Positions 7,462 through 60,104 of a stretch of 64,000 bases of DNA are shown piece by piece (position 1 is the stretch's first letter; the number at the start of each line of letters is the position of its first letter). The stretch is from Candidatus Falkowbacteria bacterium (GTDB lineage Bacteria; Patescibacteriota; Patescibacteriia; UBA11705): contig DOZJ01000005.1 of NCBI GenBank assembly GCA_003518055.1, forward strand, positions 1,319 to 65,318, given 5' to 3'. The notes below the pieces were generated by a model. That model was not told where the DNA came from, searched no databases, and saw only the letters and a list, made by a program, of their open reading frames with translations. The position numbers and the translations under genes were made by a program.

Positions 7462-7465
7462 TCTG

Positions 7466-10773: not shown

Positions 10774-10900
10774 AGTGATCCGATCGTAATTTCAAATAAT
10801 ATTTTGATCTTGCCTTGTTGAACATGTGCTTCTCTCATACCCCACCCATTCCTTGTGAAATAATAATTCAATCTAATCATACCAAATAAAGTTCGTCAAT

Positions 10901-11482: not shown

Positions 11483-11487
11483 AATAA

Positions 11488-11516
11488 ACAAACAGGGACA
11501 ATCAGCCCCTGTTTTT
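11488..11516 (+). terminator. Stem-loop (ACAGGG...CCCTGT) plus T-run
   Basis: acagggacaatcagcccctgttttttatt read directly after the 10901..11482 stop. Confidence 0.5.
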
Positions 11517-11860: not shown

Positions 11861-12210
11861 GATAGTTAATGTCTAATCCCCCTTGGGTTCCCCCTTGAAA
11901 CATCAAGGGGGATGTGTGCTTCATCGCAAAGCCAAAACAACCCCGCCGCGAAGCTACCAACCTTCCCCCTTAATTATTAAGGGGGACTGAGGGGGATTTC
12001 TTCTAGCCGCCAATCCCCATTTTCATCAAATTTTACCCTATTTTCCCCTTAATATTATACAAGATTGTTATCCACAGTCCCTCTTGCTTTCTTATATCCA
12101 CCGACTATTGCTTGACTTTTTTCCCTTTATATGATAAGCTGTAGGTGTAAAGGTAAGGCGTGAATCAGCACACACACACCCGCCAACGGCGGGAGAAACC
12201 GGAGGACCTC

Positions 12211-25921: not shown

Positions 25922-27551
25922 ACTCCCAAGGTGTGTTATATCTGCCTAAAAATTGGTGCCCTCTCCGCTCCAATTCGACTCCCGTAATTTTAGCATCAAA
26001 ACAATTGACGTATCCGTCGCAAACTGTAATGACTTTACTATTTGCTGGAACTTGGCTAAATGTTTTTTCAAGATTGATAGTTGGAGTATACATTATCGGG
26101 ATATTCACACTTCCAGCAATATGCGATCTATATGGCTCTCTCGTATCAACAAGGACCACACCTTCTGCTACTTTCTTTTTAAGCTCATCCGTACTAAATA
26201 GAATTTGATATTTTGAATCTGTATATTTTTCCCCGAATTTGATTTCTCCAACCCATTTGCCGCCAAATTCAACCCAGCCGTTAGCGCCACCTTCCAAATA
26301 AGACGACACAATTTTTTTGGTTCTCAAAAATTCGGCCACTTCTTCACCTCGTATCCCGGACCAACAAATTACATAAACAAACTTATCTTTTGGTAATTCA
26401 ATCCAACGGCCTGCTTTTATGTCGGCAAACCGCATATGTAAACTTCCGGGGAAATAACCATTTTCGTATTCAATATCTTCTCTGGCGTCTAAAACAATAT
26501 AATCGTTTTGCTGGTTGTCTGTGATATTTTTAAAATCCTGATTTGTAACAAGCATGCTTGCACTTTCATTTTTGGCAAAAAAATCATATTCTTGGGCAAT
26601 TTTACTTTCATCAACGGAAACATTTTGATTATCAATTAACCCTTGAGCCAAAATTTTAACTTCCGATTTTTCCACTCTTACCGGTATCTCGCTTTGTAAC
26701 GCTAAAGTCATCAAAACACCATATCTCGTGAATGTTCCGTCCTCATATAAAGTTAATTCGATTGATGATTTTTTTTCATCAATCCGAACCAATTTATCCA
26801 ACGTTATTTTAGAGGTTTTTAAATACCAACCTTTGAAAGTGTCAAAGCCAACAGTTTTTTTAGACCTTTCATAGGCTTGTTCTAAATTTCCATTGGCAAT
26901 ATTTCCGTAGTATTCGCTTATAAACTTAGCCGAACTATCATTTAAATTTATATTGGAGATAAATTTTTTAGCAGAGGTGTCAATATTTTTGTTATTCTCA
27001 GCACCAATATGTAATTGGTCATTTTCATCATCATTAACCCCGCTGCCGCCAAGTTTTCCTGGACCATTTGGGTTATATCCATTTTTTACTTCCTCTCCGT
27101 CCAAATATCCATCACCATCCGTATCCGGATTATTTAGATCAGTGCCAAAGTTTTTTTCTTCTAAATCAGTTAATCCATCATTATCTGAATCATAATTGAT
27201 ATTTTGACTTGCGGCGTATAGTTGACTTTCTTCAAGCCATTTTTGATATTCGATTTTTTGCTTGTAGATTGCGTAAAAATAAGACGAAACAATAGATATT
27301 ACTATAATAGCGAGAATAGTCAGACTTAAAATTGTTTTTTTATATTTAAAAGCATAATATCTTGTCTTAAAAAATTGGAACAACGTTCCAAAAATGGCAG
27401 TAAAAAATATTGCAACCATTGAAAAAAATTGAGCTACTTGAGTTCCAATATTGAAAATAAAATCAGGTGGAATTACGGCCTGGGCGGGTTGAGGGTAAAA
27501 ATAATACCCAAGAAGTAAAAACGCTGATACTTTTAAAATTTTTTTATTCAT
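25911..27551 (-). CDS. Secreted or membrane protein with TSP3-like Ca-binding repeats and two C-terminal rhodanese-homology domains
   Basis: Signal peptide MNKKILKVSAFLLLGYYFYPQPAQA, taken from the ATG at 27551; the longest ORF begins at 27647. DSDNDGLTDLEE...DTDGDGYLDGEE repeats. The first rhodanese domain has the catalytic loop VICWSGIRGEE; a second rhodanese-like domain follows. Overlaps the previous gene by 11 bp. Confidence 0.6.
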   Translation of the reverse strand: MNKKILKVSAFLLLGYYFYPQPAQAVIPPDFIFNIGTQVAQFFSMVAIFFTAIFGTLFQFFKTRYYAFKYKKTILSLTILAIIVISIVSSYFYAIYKQKIEYQKWLEESQLYAASQNINYDSDNDGLTDLEEKNFGTDLNNPDTDGDGYLDGEEVKNGYNPNGPGKLGGSGVNDDENDQLHIGAENNKNIDTSAKKFISNINLNDSSAKFISEYYGNIANGNLEQAYERSKKTVGFDTFKGWYLKTSKITLDKLVRIDEKKSSIELTLYEDGTFTRYGVLMTLALQSEIPVRVEKSEVKILAQGLIDNQNVSVDESKIAQEYDFFAKNESASMLVTNQDFKNITDNQQNDYIVLDAREDIEYENGYFPGSLHMRFADIKAGRWIELPKDKFVYVICWSGIRGEEVAEFLRTKKIVSSYLEGGANGWVEFGGKWVGEIKFGEKYTDSKYQILFSTDELKKKVAEGVVLVDTREPYRSHIAGSVNIPIMYTPTINLEKTFSQVPANSKVITVCDGYVNCFDAKITGVELERRGHQFLGRYNTPWEYDK

Positions 27552-27739
27552 GCTGTGATTATTGTAGTTTGTTTTTTTTATTTCCAAGCGTCGCCATTTG
27601 GTGATATCAACACCACGCAAAAAACACCTCATTAAATGGAAAACCAATCTGAAAATTTATTTAAACTGCTTGAACGCCTGTCCAACATTAAGGCCGCACC
27701 TCAGGTATGGGATACAAACCACCACGACCAAACCAACGG

Positions 27740-28579
27740 TTAAATCATTTCTTTCATGCCCTGACTGATGACACCCGCCAGCCGCGCCCAATCCTCGACC
27801 GCCAATTCCTGCGCTCTCACAGTCGACTTCAACCCGGCCGCCAGTAAAAATTGTTCAACTTCATTTGCAGACAGTCGAAAACCCGCGGCTAAATTATTTT
27901 TCAGTTGTTTTCTTTTGGCGGAAAAACCGATCCGAACAGTTTGGAAAAATATTTTCTCATCAATCTCAAATCGCGGCCCGGTCACGTCAAAAACCAAAAT
28001 CGCGCTATCCACCCTCGGCACCGGATAAAAACTTTTCGCCGGCACCAAACCCACAATTTTCGGCTCAGCAAAAAACTGCGCCGACACACCGAGCAGACTC
28101 ATTTTTCCCGCCCGAGCAGTCACGCGCTCCGCCACTTCTTTTTGCACCAGCAGCACCATTTTACGCGGTCGAAATTCCGTTTCCAAAAACTGCCGCAAAA
28201 AATGAGCGGTAATATTATAGGGGATATTGGCCACGATTTTATATTCTTTGGTCTCAAAATTATCAACAATCCGTGACGGCGCCACTTTCAAAATACTATC
28301 GTTGATCAGAATTAAATTCTCCGTCTGTCTAAATTCTTTTTTCAAAACATACATCATTTGCCGGTCAAGCTCCACCGCCACGACCAGCTTTGCCTTTGCC
28401 ACCAGTTGCTCGGTCAAAACTCCAAGTCCGGGGCCGACTTCAAGCACCTCATCTTGATCAGTCAAATCCGCCGCCTCGACAATCTGGCGCAGCGCTGTCC
28501 GATCAACCAAAAAATTCTGCCCGGCATCGTGATTGGGTTTAACATTATATTTTGTTATAAGTTTTCGCGGATCAAGCAT
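27740..28579 (-). CDS. rsmA: 16S rRNA (adenine1518/1519-N6)-dimethyltransferase RsmA/KsgA
   Basis: GQNFLVDRTALRQIVEAADLTDQDEVLEVGPGLGVLTEQL and overall KsgA architecture. Confidence 0.9.
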   Translation of the reverse strand: MLDPRKLITKYNVKPNHDAGQNFLVDRTALRQIVEAADLTDQDEVLEVGPGLGVLTEQLVAKAKLVVAVELDRQMMYVLKKEFRQTENLILINDSILKVAPSRIVDNFETKEYKIVANIPYNITAHFLRQFLETEFRPRKMVLLVQKEVAERVTARAGKMSLLGVSAQFFAEPKIVGLVPAKSFYPVPRVDSAILVFDVTGPRFEIDEKIFFQTVRIGFSAKRKQLKNNLAAGFRLSANEVEQFLLAAGLKSTVRAQELAVEDWARLAGVISQGMKEMI

Positions 28580-45277: not shown

Positions 45278-46225
45278 TTATTCCTGACCGGTAAACACAA
45301 AGCTTTGCACCAAAAGTTCAAACAAATGCGGATAGCTGGCCTTTTCCTTCAAACCAATATCATAATCAATCACATAAACATATTCACCTCGAGCGAAATA
45401 AACCGTAAACTCATCCGGACTACGAACCCCCTTTAGTCCTGACTTATTTTCAAATTCCACCACTTCATCTTGTTTCTCGATATCGATCTGGGAGGTATAC
45501 CACTCAATCAAGGACAAATTCAAAGAATTTTCCAGCACCAGTACATTGATATTTTCCGTCAGCGGCGAAGAAAAAATTATCTCCGAGTTGTCCGGTTTAA
45601 GCGATCGGGCAAACCACCCCTTGGGATAAAACAAGTCATAATCAAATGTCGGATTCACATATGTAAAAACCAACCCTGAAAATTCCAATTTAGCTGGATC
45701 TATACCAGATGGATTGTATAAATTCCCCAATTCAACGCCATCCACAAAGCTATCAGAATCCGAGTCTGGCCTTTGATAATCCGTCTCCAGTAAAAATTCC
45801 TCAGCATCGGTCAAACCGTCGTTATCACCATCAACATCAATCATATCACTCAATTTTGTCGGTTTAATTGTTGCCGGGTCAAATTCAATTTCCGGCTCGA
45901 TCTCGATCTTGGGTTCAACCACCTCAGGGATTTCCTCCGGCTTTTTTTCCGTCTCAATGACCTTCACGATTACTTCCGGTTCAGGAGCAGGCTTAAAATA
46001 AATCAAATACCCGATATAAGACAATAATGCGACCGTAAGAATCAAAAACACAATCACCACCATCGGCAGAGCGCGGCTTTTTTTCCTGATCACTTTGGTT
46101 TTAGTCACGATTTTTTCCCGAATGATCTCCTTTGGTTGGTCGGGATTTATCCCATGATACTCTTCGGGCATGACATAAACCTTGTCATAATCAGCGGTAA
46201 TTTTTTTTTCTTTTTCTTCGGCCAT
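45278..46225 (-). CDS. Membrane-anchored protein with TSP3-like Ca-binding repeats (315 aa)
   Basis: TM helix LPMVVIVFLILTVALLSYIGYLIYF and repeats DVDGDNDGLTDAEE...DSDSDSFVDGVE. Paralog of 22684..23496 and 46264..46869. Confidence 0.6.
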   Translation of the reverse strand: MAEEKEKKITADYDKVYVMPEEYHGINPDQPKEIIREKIVTKTKVIRKKSRALPMVVIVFLILTVALLSYIGYLIYFKPAPEPEVIVKVIETEKKPEEIPEVVEPKIEIEPEIEFDPATIKPTKLSDMIDVDGDNDGLTDAEEFLLETDYQRPDSDSDSFVDGVELGNLYNPSGIDPAKLEFSGLVFTYVNPTFDYDLFYPKGWFARSLKPDNSEIIFSSPLTENINVLVLENSLNLSLIEWYTSQIDIEKQDEVVEFENKSGLKGVRSPDEFTVYFARGEYVYVIDYDIGLKEKASYPHLFELLVQSFVFTGQE

Positions 46226-46263: not shown

Positions 46264-46869
46264 CTACAAATTCAACAGTTTTCCCGGACCGTTCGGATCA
46301 TAACCATTATTAACCTCATCTCCATCAATGTAGGTATCATTATCAGAATCACGATTCAATGGATTGGTTCGATAAACCCGCGTTTCCTGAAAATCAGTTA
46401 AACCGTCATTATCAGTATCAACCTTATCAGCGGCCGTACCAAGCTGAGCTTCTTCAGCATCCGTCAAACCATCGCCATCCAAATCTGAGACTATCGGAGT
46501 CAGAGGGATTTCATTTGTAACCGACTCAGGATTGTCCTGCGGTTCTTCAATGACTTCAACCGGCGCGTCACGTTCCTCAAGAATCAAATCGCTATCGTTA
46601 TCATCTTCAATCTTTTCCCCATCAAAAAACCATAACCCAGCCATAACCGCGGCCGCGATGACCACCAAAACCACGACAAAAAGCAAAACAATCTTCATCA
46701 CGCTCCCACCGGATTTCGCCGCCATCGGCGCGCCCACAGGGACTTCGCTCTGCGGAATGGAATTCACCGGCTGAGTCGTTGGTTTCATTGGGATTGACTC
46801 AGTTGTTTGCGGCGGTGTTTGACCGTCGGCTTTATTCATCCCGTCTTGAAATTTTGGATCGTCAAACAT
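46264..46869 (-). CDS. Membrane-anchored protein with TSP3-like Ca-binding repeats (201 aa)
   Basis: TM helix plus DLDGDGLTDAEE...DTDNDGLTDFQE...DSDNDTYIDGDE repeats. Shares the C-terminal NGYDPNGPGKL motif with 25911..27551. Confidence 0.6.
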   Translation of the reverse strand: MFDDPKFQDGMNKADGQTPPQTTESIPMKPTTQPVNSIPQSEVPVGAPMAAKSGGSVMKIVLLFVVVLVVIAAAVMAGLWFFDGEKIEDDNDSDLILEERDAPVEVIEEPQDNPESVTNEIPLTPIVSDLDGDGLTDAEEAQLGTAADKVDTDNDGLTDFQETRVYRTNPLNRDSDNDTYIDGDEVNNGYDPNGPGKLLNL

Positions 46870-46874: not shown

Positions 46875-49800
46875 TTATTCGATTACAAAATTAAATCCTG
46901 GTTTATTATTGATAGTATAATAATTGTATGACTCGGCTTCTGTCCTGAAAGTAATCCTAGCCTCATTAAAACCCTGGTATAAGTAAGAATATGCATAGTT
47001 AAACAACGACACTGGTGATGTCCCTATCGGGAAAACCATCTCTATTTGTAATGTATCAGGATCATAACAATTATTCACGTCCGCGCCTTGAGAACAGACC
47101 GAACATTTAGCCTGTCCCTGATAATCGAAACATTGGTGCTCTGCTAACAAACATTTTTTACCATTACTGCCACAAGAAACACCAACAAAAGTTGCATTTG
47201 TGCTTGGTTCATATCGAGCCATTTGATTGATTGGATCAAGTGCTAACTGTTTACCCAGAATATTACCTAATTCCGCTTGCCAACTCGGCCAAACGGAATA
47301 TGATTCTCCCCGGCGATAAGTGCCTCCTTCCAATCGCGGCAAATCTATTTTTTGCGTGTAATAATCGGTTAAATACTGACGAAGCCCAACAATATTATTA
47401 ATTCTCTGAATATCCCGTCTAATCGCAAACTGTACGTCGGAACTGGACACATTAATATTAAATCCCATATTTTCAACCAGCTGGGAAAACATATTTATTG
47501 TCCGGCTATTAGCGCCCAAGTTGTAGCCCAAAACATATATATAATTGGAAACGCTAGCGCTCGAACCGCTGCCGATCAAATTCCCGGCAGAGACATAAAC
47601 GGTATTACCGTCTTTTACGCCGTAATAACAATCATCAGTATCATAGCGTGCATCATGACTGCAAAAAACCTTGACCTCACTGACTGATTGCCCGGCTTGC
47701 GGCACTTGCTGGCGATACCATTCAGCCGCCGACAAATTAGCCGGATTTTCATAAATGCGCAATGAAATCACATCATCGGAAAAATCATTGGTATTCACTG
47801 AATTTATAATCTCATCGGAACGGATCAACAAATACTGCCGCTGCAAACCATTCTCCTCCGCGCCGATTTGAGATGTCACCACCCGAAGAAGCGGCAGATC
47901 ATCCATCCGATTATTTATTTGTTCCCGATCGCGGCAATATCGCAACAAAATATTCCGGCCATCGCTACCGTCATCCCAACTCCATGGATTTTCACAAATA
48001 AAGGCTGAAACCAAACCCGAACCGGTTCTTTCTGATTTAACCTCGCCAAAATATTGATCAAATGTAATTTCCGCCGTCATCTCAATATCACTGTCACCGT
48101 TTTTATTCTTCGCCATAGCTACATCCTCATTCGAATCAACCACATCGGTAATACTCACAATATCTCTATCTTCAATCTCCCAAGCTCCCCAGCTCCAAGC
48201 ATAATGCCCGGAAATCGGCTGGATTTCAGTATTGCCTGATTTGGCCAAATGACGAATATTCCAAATTTCATCCCTCTGAGTCACATTCTTGACCGCCGGT
48301 TCAATCCCAACCGAATCAAAATGACAATAATCCGATCCGACATTAAATCTGAACTCCTGATCAGGAATAATCATGCTGCAATTATTTTTTACATTCTTCA
48401 ACACCACTTCATAATCCGTCACCCTCAAAGCGCCTTTAGTGGCAATATAAATCTGAGTCACCAAATTCTTTCCAATTTGAACCTTTTGCGCCACAACCGC
48501 GTAATTATTCTGATTTTCCACGCACCATTCAGCCGCCTGAGCCTTTAACCCAAAAAATTCTCCAGTCCAATCACGCAGCCGCCCCAACCAACTCAAACTG
48601 CCGCCGCATTGATCCGCCCGATAGCGCAATTCCACAAATTTATTGATTTTTCCACCCCCCTTGTGTAATTCCGTCATCAAATAATCATATCTAACTGTTA
48701 TCACCGCGTTGGGGCAGGTCAACGTACCATCCGGACTGATCAACGTCGCTCGCGGCGGATTATTCGGATCACATTCAGGAGGTGTTGGACCGCCCAAACC
48801 TGAATATATATATGTTAATAAACTTTCATCGTTAATACTTTGTCCTTGCTCTGTAGAATTTTCAAGGTACGACACGTTGTTGGTCAACGTCCCCCTGATT
48901 TTAGCTGTTTGCTGATTCTGTCCGGCTGGAAGATGACCCAAAACCGTCGCCATACTATATGGCGCGCCATAATTAGTCACCGTCACACCAGCCTCTGTTT
49001 GTTCACAAATTCTATCTTCACCCGGCTCGACAATTCCATTGCCGCAAAAAGACGCGTTGGCATCATTAGATCCGCCATTCAGACATCCACTCGTGCACCC
49101 GGCCGCCGGTCGGCAGGTACAATTACCCTCATCCAATCTGCCGGCACAATTTTCGCCGGTGGAATTATTAGTACAAGTATATTCACACTCTTCAGTATAA
49201 CCATTAAAGGATTCAGTCAACCCATTGCCGCAGCAACTCACAGTGTCTTGTAATTCCGTACATGTATCAAAAGGTTTTATTAAACATTTATTTGAACATG
49301 TGACCGATTCAAATGCCGGACAAACACAATAATCAGTTCCCGGCTGACACAAAACCGTCACCACTTCTCCTTGTGAATTTTTTTGCACACTGCCATCAGC
49401 ATTTCTTACCGGCATAACGCATTCATTAGTCACCGGTTCGCACTCTTCACCGGAATCCACCAGACCGTTGCCGCACACCGGACCAACATACCCTGAGCTT
49501 CCTTTATATAAACAATTATTATCTAATCCAAATAGTGTATTAAGCTTCGAACTGCCAAAATCATCATCTTCACCCAATTCTTTTGCTCCATTGCCACAGA
49601 CAAATCCCGCTGACTGAGCACCCTCATTAAAACATTCACGGCTGCAGCCATCACCGCTATTACCGTTGCCGTCATCACAATCTTCGGTCGGATCAACCGT
49701 CCGATTACCGCAGCAAGCACTCGAGTTGCCGCCGAAACACAGCGGACTGCCGAGACGTAAACATTTATTCGAACAAAAGGCCTCACCGTCACATTCTTCA

Positions 49801-52800
49801 CCGGCTTCAATCACATCATTACCGCACACCGCTCTAAAAGTCACCGACCCTTGATTCAAACAATTTTCCGTACACGCCACCGCTCTTTGCGGTGAATATG
49901 TGGTTTCATACATGGCAATCAATTTGTCCGCGGCCGCCGCACTGGCTGAGACACTGGCCAAATCTACTCTTCTTGTATAATAAACCGCCTCACCCGTCAT
50001 CTCCTCCCAATCCCAAGTATAATGTTTTGCGCTCAATCTCTGACCGTTAGCGCTGCATGTATCCGGAGCAGAAAATGGCGTGGCGCTGAAGACAGCCTGC
50101 TCACCCGCCATCGTAGATAAATAACTGCTCGGACTAACATCCACCCGTTCCGGCCGGCAAAAACCGCCATCCTCACGAGTTTTAAATACAAAACTGAAAG
50201 AATCAAACGTTGATGGACTGGTAATCGTCTGATCAGTCAAAACACAATTAGTACAATTATCCGGAAAACTGCAGCTACAACCGGCATCTCCATAATCACA
50301 CTCTTGCCTCTCAGACAGGCTGCAAGTCTCCGGACAAACCAAATCTTTTTCTTGCGGACACTCAGCCGTGGTGGTATTTAAATCAACACAAGTGCAGGCT
50401 GGCGAACTCGCTGTACATTGATTGGTTGTCCCTGAACAATAAGTTAAAATCTGACACTCGCCCTTGACCGCATCAGCTTCAAAACAAGCTTCCTCCGGCG
50501 CCAATTGAAAGCGTCCAACATCTTGGCACGTACACCCGGCCGAGCTGCCGGTACAAGCCTGAGTAATGTTTTCCGCGCAGGCTCTTTGCGGCTGACAATC
50601 ACACGCGGATTGATTTTCAGTACAATATTTTGTTGTATCCTCCTGACACACCTTTGGTTCAATACATGTGCAGGTCAAAGAATCAGTGGTACATTTTTTA
50701 TTTATATCTTCTAAACAATATGACGCACAAGTTGAACTTTCACACTCTCTTGGCTGGCCGCATTGACAAGCCGTGGACAAAATATTCGGTTTATTTTTAT
50801 TATCATTAAAATATTCATTACACACTTCGAGTGGCGTCACCCCAAGGCTGCCGACAAACGTCACCTTTCCTGCTTTTGTGCACTCATCAACTTCGCATTG
50901 TTCCTGCAACTGGGCTGAACCAAGATAAGTGTCAATATCACCGTCGCCGCAGCAGCCGGTCCCGCCATTAGTACACCGTGAAAAACCAACCAATCGGCAA
51001 TCATTGGAACAATATGGATTGTTGCTCAAAGCACACACGCAATTCGCCGTACCGGATACGCAAACCGCGTTGGACTGGCTATTCAAACAAATCGCTTCGC
51101 ATTGTTCACCGGCATCGGTTTCAATCACGCCGTTCCCACAGGTTCCCACATTTGCCCGGGTATTAAAATTCAAACCGGTCAATGTTTTATCACTGATACT
51201 CGTCAATTGGCCGCTGATAACCAAGCGATAATACTTGGCCGGGCTAAGCACCGGTGTCGGACTGATCCTGAGACGATTACAGACCTCGCCATAATTCGTC
51301 AAAGTTGAGACTCCGGTCGTCGAATCGCAATCAATTTCTCCGGCTTGATAATCAGCCAGCATATTCACCTTTGAAGCCACGGATATGCAGTCGGCATTAT
51401 CACATTCGTACAGACCAACCGCTGCTGTATTGTCACGCAATGCTTCATAGGGAAAATATGTATTAAACAAAGCTCCAAGTTCGGCATTCACACACGCCGC
51501 GCCGCAATTAGGCCAAAAATCCACTACCCTCGGCTCAGCCAAAGTTACAGCCAAATCTGCCTCATCTTGCAGCGGCTGGCTGGAAACCATACCATTAGTT
51601 TGGACCACCCCCGGATCGCCCGGCGGCGTTTCCACCACCACCGCCTCTGGATTGGCGGCAAAATAGGCCACATCACTCCTAGATCCGGCCACAAACAATC
51701 GGCTGATTCGATCGCCGTATCTCGTTACCAGCCAATTCCAAGTCTCATTTGAGACATCAATGATACCGCAATTACTGGCTTGACCGGAAACCGCGAACTT
51801 CTGGCTCTCAGTCACATCAGTCAAAACTCCCTCTCCGGGATTAACCACCACCGAATCTATCGCACAGTCAGCCTCAGCAGTTTTGAATTTCCAGGTATAA
51901 TCATTCAATAATTCTTGAACCTCATCGCCGACGGCCGAAACATTTCTGATCCCGGCTTTTACCATCACGGCATACCATGTATTCGGCGCCACATCATAAT
52001 TTACTAAATTTATTTGAGTTACCCTGGTGTTGTCATAATTGGAAACCAACGCCTCATCAAGTAATGTTCGCCCGCTTCCGTCCGTACCCTGAGCCACGAA
52101 ATCATATTCCTCCACCGCGCAGTTGCTGTCGTCACACAAATCAAGATTACATTCACTCCCCGCCGTCAAGCAGCTCCGAACTTCCACTCGATTGGCGTCA
52201 ACCAAAGATTCAGTATCCATTTCCATGTTAAACGTAAAACTGATCAACCCGTTCGGACAAGCATTCTGACCGTTGGCTTTCGGTGACGGCGATTCATCAA
52301 AAATCCCCAAACTACATTCTCGGTTAATGACTCGAGGAACGCGGGGAATATTACCGGTGCTGAAATACCAGCCAAATTCGCAATTCGTCGCTTGAGCCTG
52401 ACAAAATTGAGCCTCGGTACAATATGAATTTTGACAACATACCTCGCCCGCGCCACAACTACTGGTCGTGCATCGGCCAACGCTAAAAGTTACCGGGGTG
52501 CTATTAACCCCAGCGGCCTCCACCACCATATCGCCGCTTCTGGCATCAGGCGGAACCGTCACACCGGAAATTTCTGTATTACTCCACTCTGCAGATTGCA
52601 AATTAAATCCCTCGACAATCGCCGGCACACCTTCGGCCGCTGACGCAAACTTTATTCTACCCTTCTGCTCTCCAAAGCCGACGCCTTGAATTGTGATTGT
52701 TGTTCCCGGCGGTCCGTTATCAGGCGTCACCGAACAAATTCCGGGGGTAACCGTCAAACTATCATCCACGGAATAAGGCACTGTGGCACTCCCCGCATTA

Positions 52801-54902
52801 TTAACAATTTCCAAAGTATATGAAGCAGTCGCCAGTTCCGGTATTGTTATTTGGATGCTGTCATTTGACCAATTATTAACACAAGTGGTCAATGCCGGTG
52901 TCCGCGTATTATCTCTTATAAAATTAACCGTTCCTCCCACGCCAAAATTATTGCCTCGAATGGTTATAATTTGACCGGGAGCCGCGGCTGTGGGCGTTAT
53001 CGATTCAATTGTTATCTGGCTCTCGCTTTCGCTAACACTAAAATCTACCGGATTGCTATAAAATTCATCTCGGCCCACTTGTACTGTCTTTCTGCCAGCG
53101 CCGATAAACGGCACCTGAACATCACTGATCACGTCATCAAGCCAATTTCCGGCCGATATTTCATCTCCGTTAAAATATACACCACCATCAGAACCAAAAT
53201 TTCTGCCGGTTAAAATTAATTGATTACCGGGCAAACCGAATCGCTCCTGAGTGGCCGCATTCCGGACTGAACACAGTCCGATCATATTCGAACCGTTCGC
53301 CACAATTTCCAAATCCCGATTCCATCCGGGAGCATTTGGATCTGCTGTATTGTACCAACTACCTTGATTATTAAAAATTTGTACTGGACCGGTGGTTGTG
53401 TCCGGCACCGTAACTACCACTTGTCGCTCATCCCAGCTGTCACGGCCGCAAAGCGGCGCAGCCTCAACACCATTAATCAAAACTCTGGCCTCCTGAGCAA
53501 ACACGCCAAAATTCCGGCCAAACAAAGTGATAAAACCGTTGATCGGCGAACTGGCCGGAGAAATATTGGTTATCAATGGATATGGCCAGTTCGAGCATGT
53601 AGTTGAACATTGCTCCACCCCATTAATTTCCGTACAATCATCCGGTACACAATTATAAACACAATCGTCACCAGTGCATTCATTGCAATCATCCACCTCG
53701 CACTCCGGTAATGTGCAATCAAAATCCCCATCAGCATCAAAACAATTATCAGACGCAACCAAATATCGACCGGTAGCCGAAGCCTGATTGCCACTAACAT
53801 CACCAACGGATACCTCTCCGGTGTGCCAGCCCAAATCAAAACCAGAAGTAACCGAACTTAATATTGAATTATATGTCAGTGGAGAGGCATCCTCAAAAAT
53901 AATCTCCTGACACAGACTATCTTGGGCCGTTTGTTTTGTCGGACAAAATTCCACCGCCGCCAATCCACTGGCATCAGCCGCGTCAACCGTAAAATCTTCT
54001 TGGAACCCCAATCGCACCTGTCTTGGACTTGGAGTCAATGACACCGTCGGACTGGTGGTATCGCAGCTGTTTGACGTAGAAAAATCAACTTGCTGACAAT
54101 ATCCCTGTAGTCGATTCGGGCAGGCGACCAAATTGCCATTTTGATCTTGCAATTCCAAAACTTTAATTCGGTAATTTTTATCTGGCTGCAAACAGCTGGT
54201 CGCGGCACACCCCTCAGGACAAGTATCATTAGTGGCAAAAATCACTTTTCGATCGGTTACCGTATAGTCTCCTTCCACCGGCACCTCAGTTTCAGTTTCA
54301 CCCTCAGTCACAATTTCAAACAATTTAATATTTGTCTTGGCATTTTGGTATTCACCTTCGGGCAACGCTGTCCGTCCACTCGGAAAGGTTATCTGGACTA
54401 CCGAATTTACCGGCCGATTGGCTCCCCTCGGCGACATCCCGACGCTAAATCCAACCGTTCCTCCGTTACCGCCATCGCCCCCGGTGCCTCCGGTCCCATC
54501 TTCCGTGCTATTAGTCGCCCCGGTTGCGTCGCCAAGACGGTTAATGACAAAACTGGTAATGGAAAAAGCGGAAATTATAATCGCCAACCCGATCATGCCG
54601 TTAATTATCCACTTTTTTGCCTTTTCCACCGCAGTTTCAGCCCCGCCGCTCGTCATATACAAAAACCCGCCGTACAAAACTATCGCCAAAGCCACCACGC
54701 CAAGAAATCCCAAAAATATTCGCAGCACTCTGGCAATGATTATTCTTGGATCTTCATTACCTAAACCGGTCTGGCCGCCGACTTCCTCCAATCCAGTGTC
54801 CAATGGTGCTTGTGCCTGAACCAATTCGGTCAAAAACAAAAAACCTCCGGCTATCACCAGTATCAGGATCAACAATCCGACGATTTTGTTTTTATTTCTC
54901 AT
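46875..54902 (-). CDS. Giant (2675 aa) secreted Cys-rich surface protein with IPT/TIG-like domains and CGNG-x-GEECD Cys-rich repeats
   Basis: Uninterrupted 8-kb ORF. The N-terminal module (signal peptide AQA, then two hydrophobic helices) is shared with 54936..57053. IPT/TIG-like segments (e.g. ITIESITPTAAAPGQIITIRGNNFG). Repeats CGNGVIETDAGEQCE, CGNDVIEAGEECD and CGNGLVDSGEECE resemble myxococcal Cys-rich repeats. Confidence 0.8.
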   Translation of the reverse strand: MRNKNKIVGLLILILVIAGGFLFLTELVQAQAPLDTGLEEVGGQTGLGNEDPRIIIARVLRIFLGFLGVVALAIVLYGGFLYMTSGGAETAVEKAKKWIINGMIGLAIIISAFSITSFVINRLGDATGATNSTEDGTGGTGGDGGNGGTVGFSVGMSPRGANRPVNSVVQITFPSGRTALPEGEYQNAKTNIKLFEIVTEGETETEVPVEGDYTVTDRKVIFATNDTCPEGCAATSCLQPDKNYRIKVLELQDQNGNLVACPNRLQGYCQQVDFSTSNSCDTTSPTVSLTPSPRQVRLGFQEDFTVDAADASGLAAVEFCPTKQTAQDSLCQEIIFEDASPLTYNSILSSVTSGFDLGWHTGEVSVGDVSGNQASATGRYLVASDNCFDADGDFDCTLPECEVDDCNECTGDDCVYNCVPDDCTEINGVEQCSTTCSNWPYPLITNISPASSPINGFITLFGRNFGVFAQEARVLINGVEAAPLCGRDSWDERQVVVTVPDTTTGPVQIFNNQGSWYNTADPNAPGWNRDLEIVANGSNMIGLCSVRNAATQERFGLPGNQLILTGRNFGSDGGVYFNGDEISAGNWLDDVISDVQVPFIGAGRKTVQVGRDEFYSNPVDFSVSESESQITIESITPTAAAPGQIITIRGNNFGVGGTVNFIRDNTRTPALTTCVNNWSNDSIQITIPELATASYTLEIVNNAGSATVPYSVDDSLTVTPGICSVTPDNGPPGTTITIQGVGFGEQKGRIKFASAAEGVPAIVEGFNLQSAEWSNTEISGVTVPPDARSGDMVVEAAGVNSTPVTFSVGRCTTSSCGAGEVCCQNSYCTEAQFCQAQATNCEFGWYFSTGNIPRVPRVINRECSLGIFDESPSPKANGQNACPNGLISFTFNMEMDTESLVDANRVEVRSCLTAGSECNLDLCDDSNCAVEEYDFVAQGTDGSGRTLLDEALVSNYDNTRVTQINLVNYDVAPNTWYAVMVKAGIRNVSAVGDEVQELLNDYTWKFKTAEADCAIDSVVVNPGEGVLTDVTESQKFAVSGQASNCGIIDVSNETWNWLVTRYGDRISRLFVAGSRSDVAYFAANPEAVVVETPPGDPGVVQTNGMVSSQPLQDEADLAVTLAEPRVVDFWPNCGAACVNAELGALFNTYFPYEALRDNTAAVGLYECDNADCISVASKVNMLADYQAGEIDCDSTTGVSTLTNYGEVCNRLRISPTPVLSPAKYYRLVISGQLTSISDKTLTGLNFNTRANVGTCGNGVIETDAGEQCEAICLNSQSNAVCVSGTANCVCALSNNPYCSNDCRLVGFSRCTNGGTGCCGDGDIDTYLGSAQLQEQCEVDECTKAGKVTFVGSLGVTPLEVCNEYFNDNKNKPNILSTACQCGQPRECESSTCASYCLEDINKKCTTDSLTCTCIEPKVCQEDTTKYCTENQSACDCQPQRACAENITQACTGSSAGCTCQDVGRFQLAPEEACFEADAVKGECQILTYCSGTTNQCTASSPACTCVDLNTTTAECPQEKDLVCPETCSLSERQECDYGDAGCSCSFPDNCTNCVLTDQTITSPSTFDSFSFVFKTREDGGFCRPERVDVSPSSYLSTMAGEQAVFSATPFSAPDTCSANGQRLSAKHYTWDWEEMTGEAVYYTRRVDLASVSASAAAADKLIAMYETTYSPQRAVACTENCLNQGSVTFRAVCGNDVIEAGEECDGEAFCSNKCLRLGSPLCFGGNSSACCGNRTVDPTEDCDDGNGNSGDGCSRECFNEGAQSAGFVCGNGAKELGEDDDFGSSKLNTLFGLDNNCLYKGSSGYVGPVCGNGLVDSGEECEPVTNECVMPVRNADGSVQKNSQGEVVTVLCQPGTDYCVCPAFESVTCSNKCLIKPFDTCTELQDTVSCCGNGLTESFNGYTEECEYTCTNNSTGENCAGRLDEGNCTCRPAAGCTSGCLNGGSNDANASFCGNGIVEPGEDRICEQTEAGVTVTNYGAPYSMATVLGHLPAGQNQQTAKIRGTLTNNVSYLENSTEQGQSINDESLLTYIYSGLGGPTPPECDPNNPPRATLISPDGTLTCPNAVITVRYDYLMTELHKGGGKINKFVELRYRADQCGGSLSWLGRLRDWTGEFFGLKAQAAEWCVENQNNYAVVAQKVQIGKNLVTQIYIATKGALRVTDYEVVLKNVKNNCSMIIPDQEFRFNVGSDYCHFDSVGIEPAVKNVTQRDEIWNIRHLAKSGNTEIQPISGHYAWSWGAWEIEDRDIVSITDVVDSNEDVAMAKNKNGDSDIEMTAEITFDQYFGEVKSERTGSGLVSAFICENPWSWDDGSDGRNILLRYCRDREQINNRMDDLPLLRVVTSQIGAEENGLQRQYLLIRSDEIINSVNTNDFSDDVISLRIYENPANLSAAEWYRQQVPQAGQSVSEVKVFCSHDARYDTDDCYYGVKDGNTVYVSAGNLIGSGSSASVSNYIYVLGYNLGANSRTINMFSQLVENMGFNINVSSSDVQFAIRRDIQRINNIVGLRQYLTDYYTQKIDLPRLEGGTYRRGESYSVWPSWQAELGNILGKQLALDPINQMARYEPSTNATFVGVSCGSNGKKCLLAEHQCFDYQGQAKCSVCSQGADVNNCYDPDTLQIEMVFPIGTSPVSLFNYAYSYLYQGFNEARITFRTEAESYNYYTINNKPGFNFVIE

Positions 54903-54935
54903 TCGCTATCTTTTTCTATTTATTTCAATTTTCTT

Positions 54936-57053
54936 TTAATATGGACACATCGCTCCCGGCTGCACCTGCATACCGCCCTCACCGGAATCATCCACCGTCC
55001 CGCAGCAAGCCCGTCCGGGAGTTTGCGGATCGCAGGCTGGTCCTTTACACGGATTAAAGCAGTTTCCCTGCATATCTTGAACCCCGGACATAATTTTCGG
55101 AAAAAAGAAAGGGATATCTAATGGATTTTGAGCCAGTGTAAACGGACCGTGATTGATCATTGTTCTTCGATCATCAGTGGTACAAAAACGTGACCCATCC
55201 GGAGATACGCCCTGATTACAAAATAAACTGCCGGTATACCAACCATTCCACGAATCCGAAACGATTATCATATTATTATTAGTCGTTGTTGTCGGATCCA
55301 TCGCCTCATTAAAGGTGGCCGACACTAAACTGTCCGGCTGGACTCCGTCACTTTTATCCTCGCCGTTTTGCGGCGTTAGGGCGGTTATTTGTGGCGGAAT
55401 CAAATCCACCTGAGACGACGTCAAAAAAGACCAATCAAAACTATCAATCGCTTGGGTCTCAGTCTGGCCATTGCCCCGCCCGATTCGTCCATTGGTATCA
55501 AGGCCGTTTAGAGCCGCGTCCACAATACCTCCAACTGGAAATCTGATTGCTGTTGGTCCGGCCGGCCCATCCGGATCGGCCGAGTTATAATTAATCAAAT
55601 TGCTCTTAGGCACCGATCTAACCAAAGTTCTAATTTCACTGTCCGCCGGCAGACAAGTCACGATATCGCCACAAGAATTGAATAGATCTGCCCCAGTGCC
55701 ACAATTTCCGTTTGATTTAAAAATTATCGATCGATATTGATTGACCGCTCCGATCACATCGCCAGTTATCGCTGCGCCGGCCGTATCATTGGTCACCAGA
55801 AACTCCGCGTTAGCATAATCAGTCACGTTAGTTGAAGTCATCCGCGAAAAAATCGGTGGAATCACCGCCTCACTAAAATCCACTCTGATCCGGCTGTTAC
55901 GCCATTGTGTAACCGCGTTCGCCGCGCCCAAATCATACTCGATTGGTTGACCGTTGGCATCCAACGTTACCGGATATACATTAGTAATAAAAGGCGGAGT
56001 TATATCAATCGTTGTATTCGTCGTAAAATACCACGGGTAAGATGAAACTGTTTGTCCGTTAAACACTCCGGTATTGGTTTGAAATTTTCTAATATTATTT
56101 GTTAACAAGGTGAAATATGTTACGTCTTCCGCCACAGTACCCAAATGATCGGTTGGGCTATTGCCATACGGATTTATCACGATGGTTTTAAAATCCGGAG
56201 TCATATAAACTTCACCGGTGACAAATTCAAAACCGCTCGGTGAAGGTTCATTCCCCCGCCACAAATTACACACTGGCCGGTTATTCCGTTGCGTCGGATC
56301 ATAACTGGGCGGCGCTATCGACCCTGCCGGATATTCGGTCTGACAAGCCTCATATATTTTAACCGCTTCTGTATTCAAGTCTCCAGCACAAACACAATTA
56401 TTGTCCGGCGTTACCGTCGTACACGCACTGCCATTTATATCAGTACAAACAAAAGCACTGTTATCTATAATAACACTACCGGGAACAATCGCTTCTTTGA
56501 AGGTAACCATTATTACCGTATTTCTAGGTACGGTCGCCCCAATTCCGGGGAAATGATCTTGAATCACCAGCCCGAGAATCCCCGAGCCGAGTCCGGGAGT
56601 AGTATATTCCCGCTGAATCCCATCACCTGTCCCACCGCCCAAAATATCCTGCAATCGACTGATAATATAACTCGTAATCGCGAACGCTGACATCATAATC
56701 GCCAGACCGATCGTCGCGTTGATCATTACTTTCTTGGCTTTGCCGGTCTTGACTTCTTCTCCACCGCTAGTCATGTAAAGATACCCGGCATAAATCATGA
56801 GCACCAAAAAAATCGACCCCACAAAACCAAAAAATATTCGAATCACCCTCGCGATTATAATTCTCGGATCTTCGTTCCCCAATCCGGTCGCTTCTCCCAC
56901 CTGTTCCGTCCCCTCGATAACACCCGGTGCCTGAGCCAAAACTGTCGAGACGCCGGTATAAAAAATCGCAATCAAAACCAACGCCAAAAAAACTCCGGCA
57001 TAGACGAGCTTTTTCTTCCGCTTAACCATTAAAAATTTAGACCGCCGATCCAT
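54936..57053 (-). CDS. Secreted protein (705 aa) sharing the N-terminal anchor module of the 2675-aa giant
   Basis: Residues about 40-130 (TGLGNEDPRIIIARVIRIFFGFVGS...YLYMTSGGEEVKTGKAKKVMINATIGLAIMMSAFAITSYIISRL) are near-colinear with the giant N-terminus. Confidence 0.7.
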   Translation of the reverse strand: MDRRSKFLMVKRKKKLVYAGVFLALVLIAIFYTGVSTVLAQAPGVIEGTEQVGEATGLGNEDPRIIIARVIRIFFGFVGSIFLVLMIYAGYLYMTSGGEEVKTGKAKKVMINATIGLAIMMSAFAITSYIISRLQDILGGGTGDGIQREYTTPGLGSGILGLVIQDHFPGIGATVPRNTVIMVTFKEAIVPGSVIIDNSAFVCTDINGSACTTVTPDNNCVCAGDLNTEAVKIYEACQTEYPAGSIAPPSYDPTQRNNRPVCNLWRGNEPSPSGFEFVTGEVYMTPDFKTIVINPYGNSPTDHLGTVAEDVTYFTLLTNNIRKFQTNTGVFNGQTVSSYPWYFTTNTTIDITPPFITNVYPVTLDANGQPIEYDLGAANAVTQWRNSRIRVDFSEAVIPPIFSRMTSTNVTDYANAEFLVTNDTAGAAITGDVIGAVNQYRSIIFKSNGNCGTGADLFNSCGDIVTCLPADSEIRTLVRSVPKSNLINYNSADPDGPAGPTAIRFPVGGIVDAALNGLDTNGRIGRGNGQTETQAIDSFDWSFLTSSQVDLIPPQITALTPQNGEDKSDGVQPDSLVSATFNEAMDPTTTTNNNMIIVSDSWNGWYTGSLFCNQGVSPDGSRFCTTDDRRTMINHGPFTLAQNPLDIPFFFPKIMSGVQDMQGNCFNPCKGPACDPQTPGRACCGTVDDSGEGGMQVQPGAMCPY

Positions 57054-57065: not shown

Positions 57066-57518
57066 TCATTGAATCATTTTCTTCACCATTGACTGCACCT
57101 TTTGACCATCAGCCTGACCGGCGAGCGCCTTCATCACTCGTCCCATCACCTGCCCGAAATTTGCCTTGTCACTTTCAGACAATGTAGCCAATATTTCTTT
57201 GACCCGGACCTCAATCTGTTCATCGGACAACTGCGCCGGCACATATTGGTCCAAAACTGAAATTTCAAATTCATCGATTTGTTTTAAATCTTCTCGTCCG
57301 CCTTGAATGTAATTGGCTATTGCTTCTCGTCTTTTTTTGATCTCCGTCCGAATCACCGTTATCAATTCCGTTTCATCCAAAAGGCGTCCAAGCTCTATCT
57401 CCTTGTTTTTGGCACCGGCGCGAAGCCCCCGAATCACGTTCAATTTTTTTGTATTTTTATCTTTTAAAGCTTGAATAAAATCAGCTTCAATTCTCTCTTG
57501 AAGTTCCATATATTTCAA
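57066..57518 (-). CDS. GatB/YqeY domain protein
   Basis: 150-aa ORF with YqeY-like pattern (ELQERIEADFIQALKDK...IRGLRAG...). Confidence 0.75.
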   Translation of the reverse strand: MKYMELQERIEADFIQALKDKNTKKLNVIRGLRAGAKNKEIELGRLLDETELITVIRTEIKKRREAIANYIQGGREDLKQIDEFEISVLDQYVPAQLSDEQIEVRVKEILATLSESDKANFGQVMGRVMKALAGQADGQKVQSMVKKMIQ

Positions 57519-58067: not shown

Positions 58068-59384
58068 TTATCTTTTATACAAGATTTTCCGAATCTCGGC
58101 AATTACCTTCTTGATATTAACCACTTCCTGAATCCCACTTTCCACGTCGCGCATCAAAATAGTCCCATCCAAAGCTTCTTTCTGCCCTAGGATTAATACT
58201 ATTTTGGCGCCTATTTTTGTCGCCGTGTCGAGCTGGCTCTTCAAACTATCTTTGGAAAAATTAGCCACCACCCGAAAATCTTCACGGCGCAATTCATCCA
58301 CAAATTGCATCGCTCGTCTTTTGGCCTGTTCACTCAATTGCGCCAAATACACATGGGGACTCTTGGCTTTGGGCACCTCGATTTTTCGATTTTTAATTTC
58401 TGAAATTACTTTCTCCACAATGAGCGACATGGTACAGGCCGGCATTTCCGGTCCGCTCAGCATTTCCGACAAATGATTGATGCGTCCGCCTTGAGCCAAC
58501 AATACCTTTTCACCGTCTTCGGATCGATTATATATCGAATAAACCGTACCACCAAAATATCCAAAATCAGGAACCATGGAATTATCCATTTCATATTCAA
58601 CCTTCACCTCGTCCAAAGCTTCCAAAAACCTGAATAAATGGCTATGTTCATCCTCGGACAAATAATCCACAATCTGCGGCGCGTCTTCAATCTGCTTGGC
58701 GCACTTTTGATTGGCGCAGGCCAAAAATTTAAATGGGTCTCTGGTTGCCTGGCTACGGCACTCGGTACAGATAGCAGAACGACGGCTTTTAATATACCCT
58801 GTCAATGCTTTAGCATATTCTACTCGGCCCGTCAACCCTCCCAAACTATTGACCTTCACATACGGCGTCAATCCCATTGCTACCAAAGTTTGGTAAATCA
58901 TAACTACCAACTCCGCATCAGCCGCCGGAGAACTCACACCATACACCTGATATCCCATTTGATACATCTGCCTATGCTTGCTTTCATAATGCTCGCCTTG
59001 AGTCATGATTGATCCCCCGTACCACAATTTCACCGGCATAGACTGATTATGCAGACTGTGTTCAATAAAAGATCGCATTACCGCCGGCGTAAAATCCGCC
59101 CGAATCGCCACCTTTTCATTTTTATCAACAAAAGTAATTATATCCTTTCGCACAAAATCGCTATTCCGTCCGATAGTGTGGGCATACAAATCAAACCGCT
59201 CCAATATCGGTGTATCAATCCATTGAAAACTAAAATCAGTCGCGGCCTGAGTCAAACCGTCAACCAAGATCCGCCAATATTTATTATCCGAGGGCAAAAC
59301 ATCTTTCATCCCCTTCACCAGCGGCGGAGTTTTGATTTTTTTTATTTGCTCCATCGGCTCGTCCATTTTTTTTCTTCTAGGCAT
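58068..59384 (-). CDS. hisS: Histidine--tRNA ligase
   Basis: Class II aaRS core with HisS-specific motifs (GMKDVLP...W; AIRADFTP; GGRIN) and a C-terminal anticodon-binding domain. Confidence 0.9.
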   Translation of the reverse strand: MPRRKKMDEPMEQIKKIKTPPLVKGMKDVLPSDNKYWRILVDGLTQAATDFSFQWIDTPILERFDLYAHTIGRNSDFVRKDIITFVDKNEKVAIRADFTPAVMRSFIEHSLHNQSMPVKLWYGGSIMTQGEHYESKHRQMYQMGYQVYGVSSPAADAELVVMIYQTLVAMGLTPYVKVNSLGGLTGRVEYAKALTGYIKSRRSAICTECRSQATRDPFKFLACANQKCAKQIEDAPQIVDYLSEDEHSHLFRFLEALDEVKVEYEMDNSMVPDFGYFGGTVYSIYNRSEDGEKVLLAQGGRINHLSEMLSGPEMPACTMSLIVEKVISEIKNRKIEVPKAKSPHVYLAQLSEQAKRRAMQFVDELRREDFRVVANFSKDSLKSQLDTATKIGAKIVLILGQKEALDGTILMRDVESGIQEVVNIKKVIAEIRKILYKR

Positions 59385-59411: not shown

Positions 59412-60104
59412 TTAATTACTGTTGAATTGAACATAATCGACTTGGTCAAATACCTTGGCACGATCAAGCGGCCACCCTCGAAGCCATACTTTACCGACGA
59501 TAAAGCCTCGACTGACCGGACCAAATAACCGCGAATCCAAACTATGCTCTCGATTATCTCCCATCACATAATATTCATCTGCTTCAAGCTGCCATCGTTT
59601 ATCGCCACGAGTCTGAACCGTCTGATCTAAATAATTAAATTCATCCAACAAATATTTCTTTTCCCCGACATCAGTATAGATAAAGACAAAACCATCCTTT
59701 ACTTCCACTGTTTCACCCGGCAAACCGATCACTCGTTTGATAAAAAACTGGGTTGGATCTTTTGGATATTTAAACACCACGATATCCCCCCGCTCAGGAT
59801 TGGAAAAACGGTATGACAATTCATCAATAATCAAATACTCATGATCATAAAAACTCGGCTCCATCGACGCCCCTTGGACATAAAACGGCTGAATCAAAAA
59901 ATATCTGACCGGAATGATTATCGCGAGAGCTACCGCCACCACTTTGATCAAATCCCAAAAAAAATACCAGACACGCTTGCCGAATGATAAATCATCGTGT
60001 TGCTGGCTAAAAGTGTATTTGTCTATATTTTTACTAAGCATTGACTCAATTATACCTGATAAAAAGTAAAAAATCAAGCCCCTGAACCTTCCCGAGTATA
60101 ACAC
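59412..60104 (-). CDS. lepB: Signal peptidase I
   Basis: GASMEPS (catalytic Ser box) and YVMGDNREHSLDSR (box D/E). Confidence 0.85.
   Translation of the reverse strand: MLYSGRFRGLIFYFLSGIIESMLSKNIDKYTFSQQHDDLSFGKRVWYFFWDLIKVVAVALAIIIPVRYFLIQPFYVQGASMEPSFYDHEYLIIDELSYRFSNPERGDIVVFKYPKDPTQFFIKRVIGLPGETVEVKDGFVFIYTDVGEKKYLLDEFNYLDQTVQTRGDKRWQLEADEYYVMGDNREHSLDSRLFGPVSRGFIVGKVWLRGWPLDRAKVFDQVDYVQFNSN

Follow-up and report, generated by a model that had tools for sequence, protein, structure and literature searches.

Two adjacent genes were analyzed in a 64,000-nucleotide stretch of a Candidatus Falkowbacteria genome, from the ultra-small bacteria of the Patescibacteria (GenBank contig DOZJ01000005.1, positions 1,319 to 65,318; this whole stretch is called the window below). 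They encode predicted secreted proteins of 705 aa (p705) and 2675 aa (the giant), which share an N-terminal module of the VirB2-like pilin family PF18895, a family named for type IV secretion systems (T4SS), in front of long ectodomains. The two open reading frames (ORFs) are co-oriented and separated by a gap of 33 nt (Table 1). The p705 protein is identical to P0010, the product of DF272_04920 in a Candidatus Falkowbacteria metagenome-assembled genome (MAG), and the giant is identical to the database representative P0031. Spurious ORFs were ruled out, as full-length orthologues of p705 are present in at least 80 species genomes.

The start codon of p705 lies 12 nt behind the end of yqeY, and the gene for a membrane protein with thrombospondin type-3 (TSP3) repeats starts 5 nt past the stop codon of the giant, followed at close spacing by the gene for a 315-aa membrane protein (p315), ybeY, and dagK. 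This spacing would fit co-transcription of the pair with its neighbors. Consensus scans returned a single promoter-like site, upstream of yqeY, which is a pattern match only and carries no evidential weight. The cassette is set among housekeeping and cell-division genes, and a six-frame hidden Markov model (HMM) scan of the window found only two copies of the module, those of p705 and the giant.

Table 1. The pair, its predicted protein regions, and the flanking genes in window coordinates
Feature	Coordinates	Strand	Basis
p705 gene (705 aa, putative 'short' modular pilin)	54936..57053	minus	NCBI tag DF272_04920, 'hypothetical protein'
p705 signal peptide, residues 1-42, end VLAQA/P	56928..57053	minus	Predicted signal peptidase I site, translation
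p705 mature pilin module, residues 43-135	56649..56927	minus	PF18895 match 71-130, AlphaFold2, alignment with free-standing pilins
p705 ectodomain, residues 158-705	54939..56582	minus	AlphaFold2, Foldseek, Big_5 match
Giant gene (2675 aa, putative modular pilin)	46875..54902	minus	ORF and translation
Giant signal peptide, residues 1-32, end VQAQA/P	54807..54902	minus	Translation; hydrophobic segment 7-25
Giant mature pilin module, residues 33-124	54531..54806	minus	PF18895 match 55-119; weak NF045849 match 55-121
Giant ectodomain, residues 150-2675	46878..54455	minus	Three TIG domains, Big_5, TIGR02232 repeat, Cys profile
201-aa single-pass membrane protein, TSP3 (Ca-binding) repeats	46264..46869	minus	TSP3_bac 1.6e-9
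315-aa single-pass membrane protein (p315), TSP3-like acidic motif	45278..46225	minus	Sequence; position kept in related loci
lepB (signal peptidase I)	59412-60104	minus	Pfam match
hisS	58068-59384	minus	Pfam match
yqeY	57066-57518	minus	Pfam match

The shared N-terminal module

Comparison of p705 with the giant by BLASTP returned one significant segment, residues 12-140 against 2-129 (53% identity, E 1e-35), and every further segment had an E value of at least 0.26. Chance similarity of the two N-termini was thereby ruled out, and the initial annotation, which had reported about 130 colinear N-terminal residues, was confirmed on this point. The elements that it had listed are all legible in the translations. 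From the N-terminus onward come a Sec leader bearing an AXA site (VLAQA/PG in p705, VQAQA/PL in the giant), an acidic N-terminal mature segment holding the 15-mer TGLGNEDPRIIIARV, which is identical in both proteins, a first hydrophobic helix, a basic loop, and a second helix that ends in SRL in p705 and NRL in the giant. The loop reads MTSGG(E/A)E...KAKK in both proteins (TSGGEEVKTGKAKK in p705) and is net positive between acidic flanks. A hydropathy scan found exactly three hydrophobic segments per protein, all inside the first 131 residues; the leader segment of p705 spans residues 21-39. The QA that opens the mature module is kept in at least 80% of 73 genomes, and the module keeps an invariant loop motif, Y.G..[YW]MT..G...AK.

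Resemblance to VirB2/TrbC-type pilins had been proposed from topology alone, and the family searches bore it out. PF18895 (T4SS_pilin, VirB2-like) was matched by all 17 aligned members of the p705 orthologue family at E <= 1e-3 (best E 6e-12), one of these additionally matched PF04956 (TrbC/VirB2), and orthologues of p705 carry a precomputed PF18895 annotation. A phmmer search with the isolated module returned, as its closest small relatives, nine free-standing proteins of 120-142 aa, all pre-annotated as PF18895, with E values down to 1e-21; the two small relatives that were viewed in context both lie in arrays of several small PF18895 genes. Matches to NF045849, a pilin-like family of mycoplasma integrative and conjugative elements (ICE), covered the whole 80-residue model and were weak (E 9e-5 and 1.4e-3), their scores of 22 and 18 bits being far under the curated cut-off of 40. 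A sequence search of the PDB with the module profile gave chance matches only. Judged by sequence, the module is a member of the catalogued PF18895 family, and at family level this assignment is solid. VirB2-like pilins of this family have been reported from 1,948 Patescibacteria assemblies, often in arrays of 2-11 small genes (PMC12102498). The module is therefore not new, and the suggestion that it is a lineage-specific invention had to be dropped, because the domain is already catalogued and is widespread in Patescibacteria (PMC12102498), an outcome that the initial annotation had itself named as refuting novelty.

Structure prediction likewise agreed with the expected topology. The mature module of p705 was modeled by AlphaFold2 as a two-helix hairpin (helices 21-53 and 58-95) with a core predicted local distance difference test score (pLDDT) of 78-89, and the same hairpin recurs in the model of full-length p705. 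The mature proteins, of about 663 aa (p705) and 2643 aa (giant), are outside the size of small pilins, which is roughly 70-120 aa.

Linkers and ectodomains

A Gly-rich linker stands directly behind helix 2 in p705, the giant, and many relatives; in p705 (residues 133-157) it is acidic and was predicted to be disordered, with pLDDT <50 in AlphaFold2. Such a linker could mark p705 and the giant as cleavable carriers, in which proteolysis after export would cut the ectodomain loose, to be secreted or bound to the wall, with a pilin of normal size staying behind in the membrane. C-terminal trimming of a propilin is known for TrbC of RP4, and the Gly-rich tails of P0001 and P0003, both free-standing pilins, resemble the fusion linker. 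The conserved cassette is, however, without a protease gene, a conserved cleavage motif was not evident on reading the linker sequences, and we consider cleavage of this kind highly improbable. The two proteins end in ...QPGAMCPY and ...KPGFNFVIE, and neither has an LPXTG motif or a C-terminal hydrophobic segment, by which LPXTG-type and other C-terminal anchoring was ruled out.

The ectodomain of p705 was modeled by AlphaFold2 as a beta-rich structure (pLDDT mostly 80-94, overall predicted TM-score 0.71). In a Foldseek search its top match was domains 1-6 of the surface-layer (S-layer) protein SbsC (E 5.6e-6), followed by matches to immunoglobulin (Ig)-like domains of LdtMt2, to cadherins, and to Sap; the TM-scores of the SbsC and Sap matches are low (0.15), and what is held in common is the repeated domain type alone. 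Pfam places a Big_5 domain at residues 552-609 of p705 (4e-10) and, in the giant, three TIG domains and a sub-threshold Big_5 match (0.0026). SLH or similar S-layer anchoring domains were absent from the Pfam matches of both proteins, and PDB sequence searches with the C-terminal 646 aa of the giant and with the p705 ectodomain gave chance matches or none.

In the giant, the Gly-rich linker is followed by an Ig-like region with the three TIG domains, a Cys-rich region of CGNG...EEC repeats (myxo_disulf/DUF4215-type, TIGR02232; repeat positions 1693-1953), and a conserved C-terminal block. Local BLAST against 71 giant relatives found blocks 400-1200, 1600-1800, and 2200-2600 in most of them and the C-terminal block in more than 50, and the Cys-rich insert at 1300-1500 was variable. 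A large protein search with the C-terminal block returned no match, its own orthologues included, which was attributed to the word index of the search and not to absence of relatives. The ectodomains are thus best described, from domain matches and the structure model, as predicted strings of Ig-like domains, with Cys-rich repeats added in the giant. The description of both remainders as Cys-rich and unrelated was accordingly narrowed: Cys enrichment is clear for the giant (139 Cys, 5.2%) and only weak for p705 (17 Cys, 2.4%), and the lack of relationship held at the sequence level and not at the level of domain type, as Ig-like domains occur in both.

Conservation and co-variation of the pair

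When one genome of each GTDB species was scanned, at least 578 stretches matched, and the locus counts below refer to the best 80, from Falkowbacteria, Uhrbacteria, Magasanikbacteria, Komeilibacteria, BM507, and other Patescibacteria. Loci were viewed with 10 kb flanks, at whose edges many giant ORFs end. An adjacent same-strand pair, consisting of a fusion of about 540-760 aa and then an ORF that bears the module and measures 1400 to more than 3480 aa, is present in 72 of the 80 loci. Six others reach the contig end right after the first pilin-fusion gene, one (L033) has the TSP3 and p315 genes between the two fusions, and one (L056) shows no giant inside 10 kb. The gene order is conserved as LepB-HisRS-YqeY-pair-TSP3-...-FtsA-FtsZ, with YbeY and DAGK before FtsA: LepB was found upstream of the pair in 63 loci, HisRS in 66, and YqeY in 59, and a TSP3 homologue follows the giant in every locus with a long enough flank. 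Four related genomes repeat the order LepB, HisRS, (S21), YqeY, a 580-712 aa fusion, a 2688-3142 aa fusion, and a TSP3-repeat protein. Syntenic pairs could be traced down to 28-30% ectodomain identity, and the six pair-carrying genomes that appear in Table S1 of PMC12102498 all belong to GTDB class ABY1. Signal peptidase I, the lepB product, is the enzyme expected to cut pilin-type leaders; this linkage may be mere inherited synteny.

An exhaustive protein search covered 1.84 billion representatives and returned 23,407 proteins at E <= 1e-3, and architectures were counted in the best 150. The module is N-terminal in all 150, and their lengths are above 2000 aa in 63 (up to 5289), 1000-2000 aa in 11, 400-1000 aa in 40, and below 400 aa in 36. 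The combination of PF18895 with Big_5 occurs in about twenty clusters with 28-74% identity. Ectodomains of the 111 fused relatives fall into two BLAST components, one of 86 giants and one of 24 p705-like proteins (p305- to p705-sized), and the giants are colinear orthologues, for example in L001 and L003-L005. The idea that different ectodomains had been grafted onto the module could not be upheld, since two conserved families account for the fusions; by sequence comparison these appear to be two ancient ectodomain families, each with the module, maintained as a pair across the class. In the databases these proteins are named 'hypothetical protein', save for one evident mis-annotation.

The module is, on alignment, the best-conserved part of both proteins. 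Mean identity to the window proteins was 48.9% (p705 type) and 52.5% (giant) for the modules and 27.7% and 27.0%, respectively, for the ectodomains. Modules were compared within and between 73 genomes. The two modules of one genome share a mean identity of 58.8%, compared with 48.5% between genomes for orthologous modules of the p705 type, 49.8% for those of the giant type, and 47.6% for cross-genome paralogous modules. A module's own partner was the best of the 73 candidates in 30 genomes, was among the top five in 50, and was the nearest of all 145 other modules in 15. None of the alignment columns cleanly separates the two module classes, and one differs weakly (I versus V). The likeness of the modules within a genome indicates concerted evolution or co-evolution of the two sequences.

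Identical codons were counted and set against the expectation from codon usage. They were in clear excess only at a paralogue identity of 70% or higher (observed 0.667, expected 0.491), and the excess was small in genomes below that identity. In L082, 52 of 68 codons are identical against 32 expected, and L041, L029, L043, and L034 are further high-identity loci; the excess points to gene conversion in some lineages, recent and between the 5' ends of the two genes. The window pair has no such excess (19 identical codons against 22.5 expected). Its 79-aa module core is 65.8% identical in amino acids, with 78.5%, 81%, and 36.7% identity at codon positions 1, 2, and 3. As only 36.7% of third positions are identical, selection on the proteins, and not a fresh copy of the DNA, appears to keep them alike; a recent duplication or conversion event in the window genome was ruled out by this value and the codon count. 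Such constraint and matching would be unneeded for a generic anchor with two transmembrane helices, so that both hairpins probably fit a common partner.

This bears on the alternative that the hairpin is a plain membrane anchor, exapted for an S-layer-like coat or cell-wall scaffold after any link to pili or secretion had gone. An anchor would suit a single-copy, syntenic pair that is vertically inherited across the class in a housekeeping and cell-division context (LepB...YbeY-DAGK-FtsA-FtsZ), ectodomains that are colinear orthologues and not hypervariable adhesins, an S-layer protein as top structural match, and the frequent position of small PF18895 genes away from VirB4. A module that is the best-conserved part (~50% against 27%), an invariant loop motif, and co-varying paralogues are unexpected of a generic anchor, which makes the alternative unlikely in our view; were it true, the Pfam name 'T4SS pilin' would be misleading for this branch.

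Another undescribed architecture of the module family was noted among the best 150 relatives, 17 of which carry 2-7 complete modules head to tail with 4-14 predicted helices. These 'polypilins' include P0046 (552 aa), P0056 (606 aa), P0075 (501 aa), P0042 (386 aa), and 13 two-module proteins, and the P0075 cluster includes a Candidatus Andersenbacteria protein. Misleading titles were noted for L008, L010, L015, L016, and about 30 other loci: many GTDB species-representative records are titled 'uncultured Gammaproteobacteria bacterium' and derive from binchicken co-assembly MAGs, and single records are titled Kapaibacterium or Udaeobacter; since the cassette and its synteny are of the Patescibacteria type in these records, the titles are evidently wrong.

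Two further large secreted proteins are encoded in the window. A 3096-aa giant ORF (13421-22711, minus strand) has a signal peptide ending SAQA, no pilin module, and a weak sub-threshold DUF4141 match at residues 36-82; directly upstream, with a 28-nt overlap, lies the gene for a 270-aa single-pass membrane protein with TSP3 repeats (22684-23496, minus strand), so that the pairing of a giant surface protein with a TSP3 membrane protein occurs twice in the window. An ORF of more than 1170 aa (2-3511, minus strand) with an N-terminal signal peptide and YD/RHS-like sequence at the window edge runs off the window start and is the third large secreted protein. GC content is 0.33-0.38 in two stretches, 4001-12000 (radical-SAM, methyltransferase, and nucleotidyltransferase genes and unannotated ORFs) and 24001-28000 (a PPDK-like gene and a rhodanese/TSP3 gene), against about 0.45 elsewhere in the window; these AT-rich stretches may be acquired islands. 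The minus strand carries almost all of the credible genes, and the GC skew stays below zero in all 2 kb bins (-0.12 to -0.31), a pattern to be expected of one replichore whose genes strongly favor one strand. The 64 kb contain no tRNA genes.

Proposed function and comparison with known systems

We propose, with a probability of about 0.55, that p705 and the giant are natural 'modular VirB2-type pilins', in which the hairpin serves as a sequence-specific handle for membrane insertion or assembly and displays the pair of surface proteins. The Sec signal peptide would be cut after AQA by signal peptidase I, and the PF18895 hairpin would insert into the cytoplasmic membrane with the basic KAKK loop toward the cytoplasm and both ends outward. 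Both the positive-inside rule and the analogy with VirB2 and F-pilin, whose membrane topology is established, suggest this orientation; given this orientation, helix 2 would act as the start-transfer signal for the C-terminal part. The flexible Gly-rich linker would then carry the Ig-like string, with the Cys-rich repeats in the giant, to display on the cell surface. Both hairpins would be kept matched, probably by docking to one partner, for which the candidates are each other, free-standing VirB2-like pilins, or the pilin-assembly platform of a T4SS. Joined by the two TSP3 (Ca-binding) membrane proteins encoded downstream, the pair may form a core, vertically inherited surface apparatus of this Patescibacteria lineage (class ABY1 in the genomes that were checked), whose role is most likely contact with other cells or surfaces, possibly by adhesion. 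The suggestion in the initial annotation that the two proteins may be adhesins for an episymbiotic lifestyle is likewise conjectural.

Several observations weigh against this proposal. The window modules score just under the PF18895 gathering score (23.1 and 24.9 bits against 26.6), and alignment of the module profile by hhalign with VirB2 of A. tumefaciens was colinear with a probability of only 23%, which makes it a weak lead instead of evidence. Foldseek comparison of the hairpin with the PDB gave nothing at E <= 0.001 (best E 1.1), and the conjugation pilin of the archaeon A. pernix (8dfu) ranked ninth at E 2.6; this comparison is uninformative because a bare helical hairpin is too simple a fold. 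Tight packing and cyclisation are known for some VirB2/TrbC pilins, and a C-terminal extension of 660-2640 aa would be incompatible with both. Episodic gene conversion, instead of selection for matching, could lie partly behind the within-genome likeness of the modules. Pfam scans of the window ORFs, which covered the pair region and most of the larger ORFs of the 64 kb, detected no T4SS components, leaving the expectation of co-occurring type IV secretion or pilus genes without a counterpart in the window, and the gene calls of the examined related loci held no T4SS machinery genes within the 10 kb flanks. The link to type IV secretion comes from module homology and from co-occurrence at genome level.

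That co-occurrence is relevant to a more literal reading, in which p705 and the giant are minor or tip pilins of a T4SS-type pilus, their hairpins being drawn out of the membrane to polymerise with small VirB2-like pilins and their ectodomains riding along as adhesins of the filament, much as type IV pili carry modular type IV pilins. In F-type pilin the C-terminus is exposed on the pilus exterior and accepts fused peptides, and the linker past helix 2 of p705 and the giant is long and flexible; conservation of the module above that of the ectodomain and co-variation of its two copies within a genome would also be expected. Homology links the module with pilins from the essential T4SS family of Patescibacteria (PMC12102498; PMC10633639), and VirB4 is present in five of the six related pair-carrying genomes that could be checked, the exception being a 619 kb partial MAG (Table S1, PMC12102498). 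Set against this are the lack of linkage between the cassette and any T4SS locus and the uninformative structural comparison of the hairpin given above. To our knowledge, ectodomains of 60-280 kDa are also far above any known pilin appendage in size. Moreover, the T4SS pilus of Patescibacteria has never been visualised and a review calls it only 'potential' (PMC12857230). Incorporation of either protein into a pilus is unproven, and on the sequence evidence we regard this reading as doubtful, if somewhat better placed than the plain anchor. A broader possibility, held equally tentatively, is that the 'VirB2-like pilins' of Patescibacteria are a general surface-assembly system, more than accessories of T4SS, and that the conserved pair of giant Ig-like proteins in ABY1 is built straight onto pilin subunits, whose two co-evolving hairpins co-assemble, with one another or with small pilins, into a filament or envelope lattice presenting megadalton-scale adhesins to host cells; if so, no natural modular pilin of the conjugative type would precede this pair, which would also be a candidate for the long-sought attachment or envelope structure of CPR (Candidate Phyla Radiation) bacteria other than Saccharibacteria.

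Much of bacterial diversity belongs to the Patescibacteria, which are presumed to live attached to other cells, and we know of contact molecules only from a few cultured Saccharibacteria. One genetically tractable species, Southlakia epibionticum, has a T4SS with unusual VirB2-like pilins, and these are essential (PMC10633639; PMC12857230). In ABY1, a conserved pair of large surface proteins carries a pilin module as a permanent fusion throughout the class; the module is their most constrained part and is kept matched between the two. If it is a general membrane or assembly handle, the label 'T4SS pilin' would mislead surveys that score every PF18895 match as VirB2; under the HMM-coverage criteria of one such survey, giants would be tallied as 'VirB2' without a flag (PMC12102498). 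If instead the pilus reading is true, conjugative-type pili with built-in giant adhesins would exist. The cassette LepB-HisRS-YqeY-pair-TSP3 offers a sharp marker for comparative and metaproteomic work, and the fused pair is a testable lead on how CPR bacteria build their surface. Searches of open-access papers and preprints found no description of a PF18895 module fused to a large surface protein and turned up only accounts of small pilin arrays, which is absence of evidence; with the module itself already known, the part for which no description was found is the fused pair, conserved and co-varying throughout a CPR class.

The pair was compared with five known systems. Like PF18895, VirB2, and TrbC pilins, p705 and the giant have an AXA-type signal peptide, two hydrophobic helices, a short basic loop, and tandem paralogous genes, such as the arrays found in the same phylum. 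The known members differ in being about 100-160 aa long and in ending just past helix 2, whereas p705 and the giant continue for a further 570 and 2550 residues, lie away from a T4SS locus, and constitute a fixed cassette of two genes, their ectodomains conserved, in place of variable arrays of 2-11 small genes. The Mbov_0395 family of mycoplasma ICE (NCBIfam NF045849) likewise offers a two-helix pilin-like protein from a wall-less, monoderm lineage, but its members are small, ICE-encoded, and without ectodomains.

Gram-positive S-layer proteins such as SbsC and Sap resemble the pair in their Ig-like strings, which match the p705 ectodomain, in Big_5-type domains, and in being the product of a conserved core envelope gene; in contrast to them, p705 and the giant gave no match to SLH or another known S-layer anchor domain and would be anchored through the N-terminal pilin-like hairpin. 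Adhesins associated with T4SS (the VirB5 tip protein of Gram-negative systems and PrgB-type LPXTG proteins of Gram-positive conjugation systems) share a proposed cell-contact role for the T4SS-bearing cell, but are separate from the pilin and have other folds and anchoring; a survey of Patescibacteria found none of the PrgB-like type (PMC12102498).

In concept, the nearest counterpart is the modular type IV pilin, exemplified by PilB of Streptococcus sanguinis, in which an N-terminal pilin carrier is joined by a short linker to a bulky functional or adhesive module (PMC8179133). Many such pilins come from CPR lineages, including Falkowbacteria and Magasanikbacteria (PMC8179133). Membership of this class was itself ruled out for p705 and the giant by the Sec leader ending in AQA, the two helices, and the absence of a G-F-T-L-I-E-type motif or of any Pfam match to type IV pili in the two proteins. 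A class III signal peptide and a single N-terminal helix characterize type IV pilins, which depend on a prepilin peptidase and the type IV pilus machinery, whereas p705 and the giant combine a Sec/signal peptidase I signal with a two-helix VirB2-like hairpin and carry appendages that are several-fold larger.

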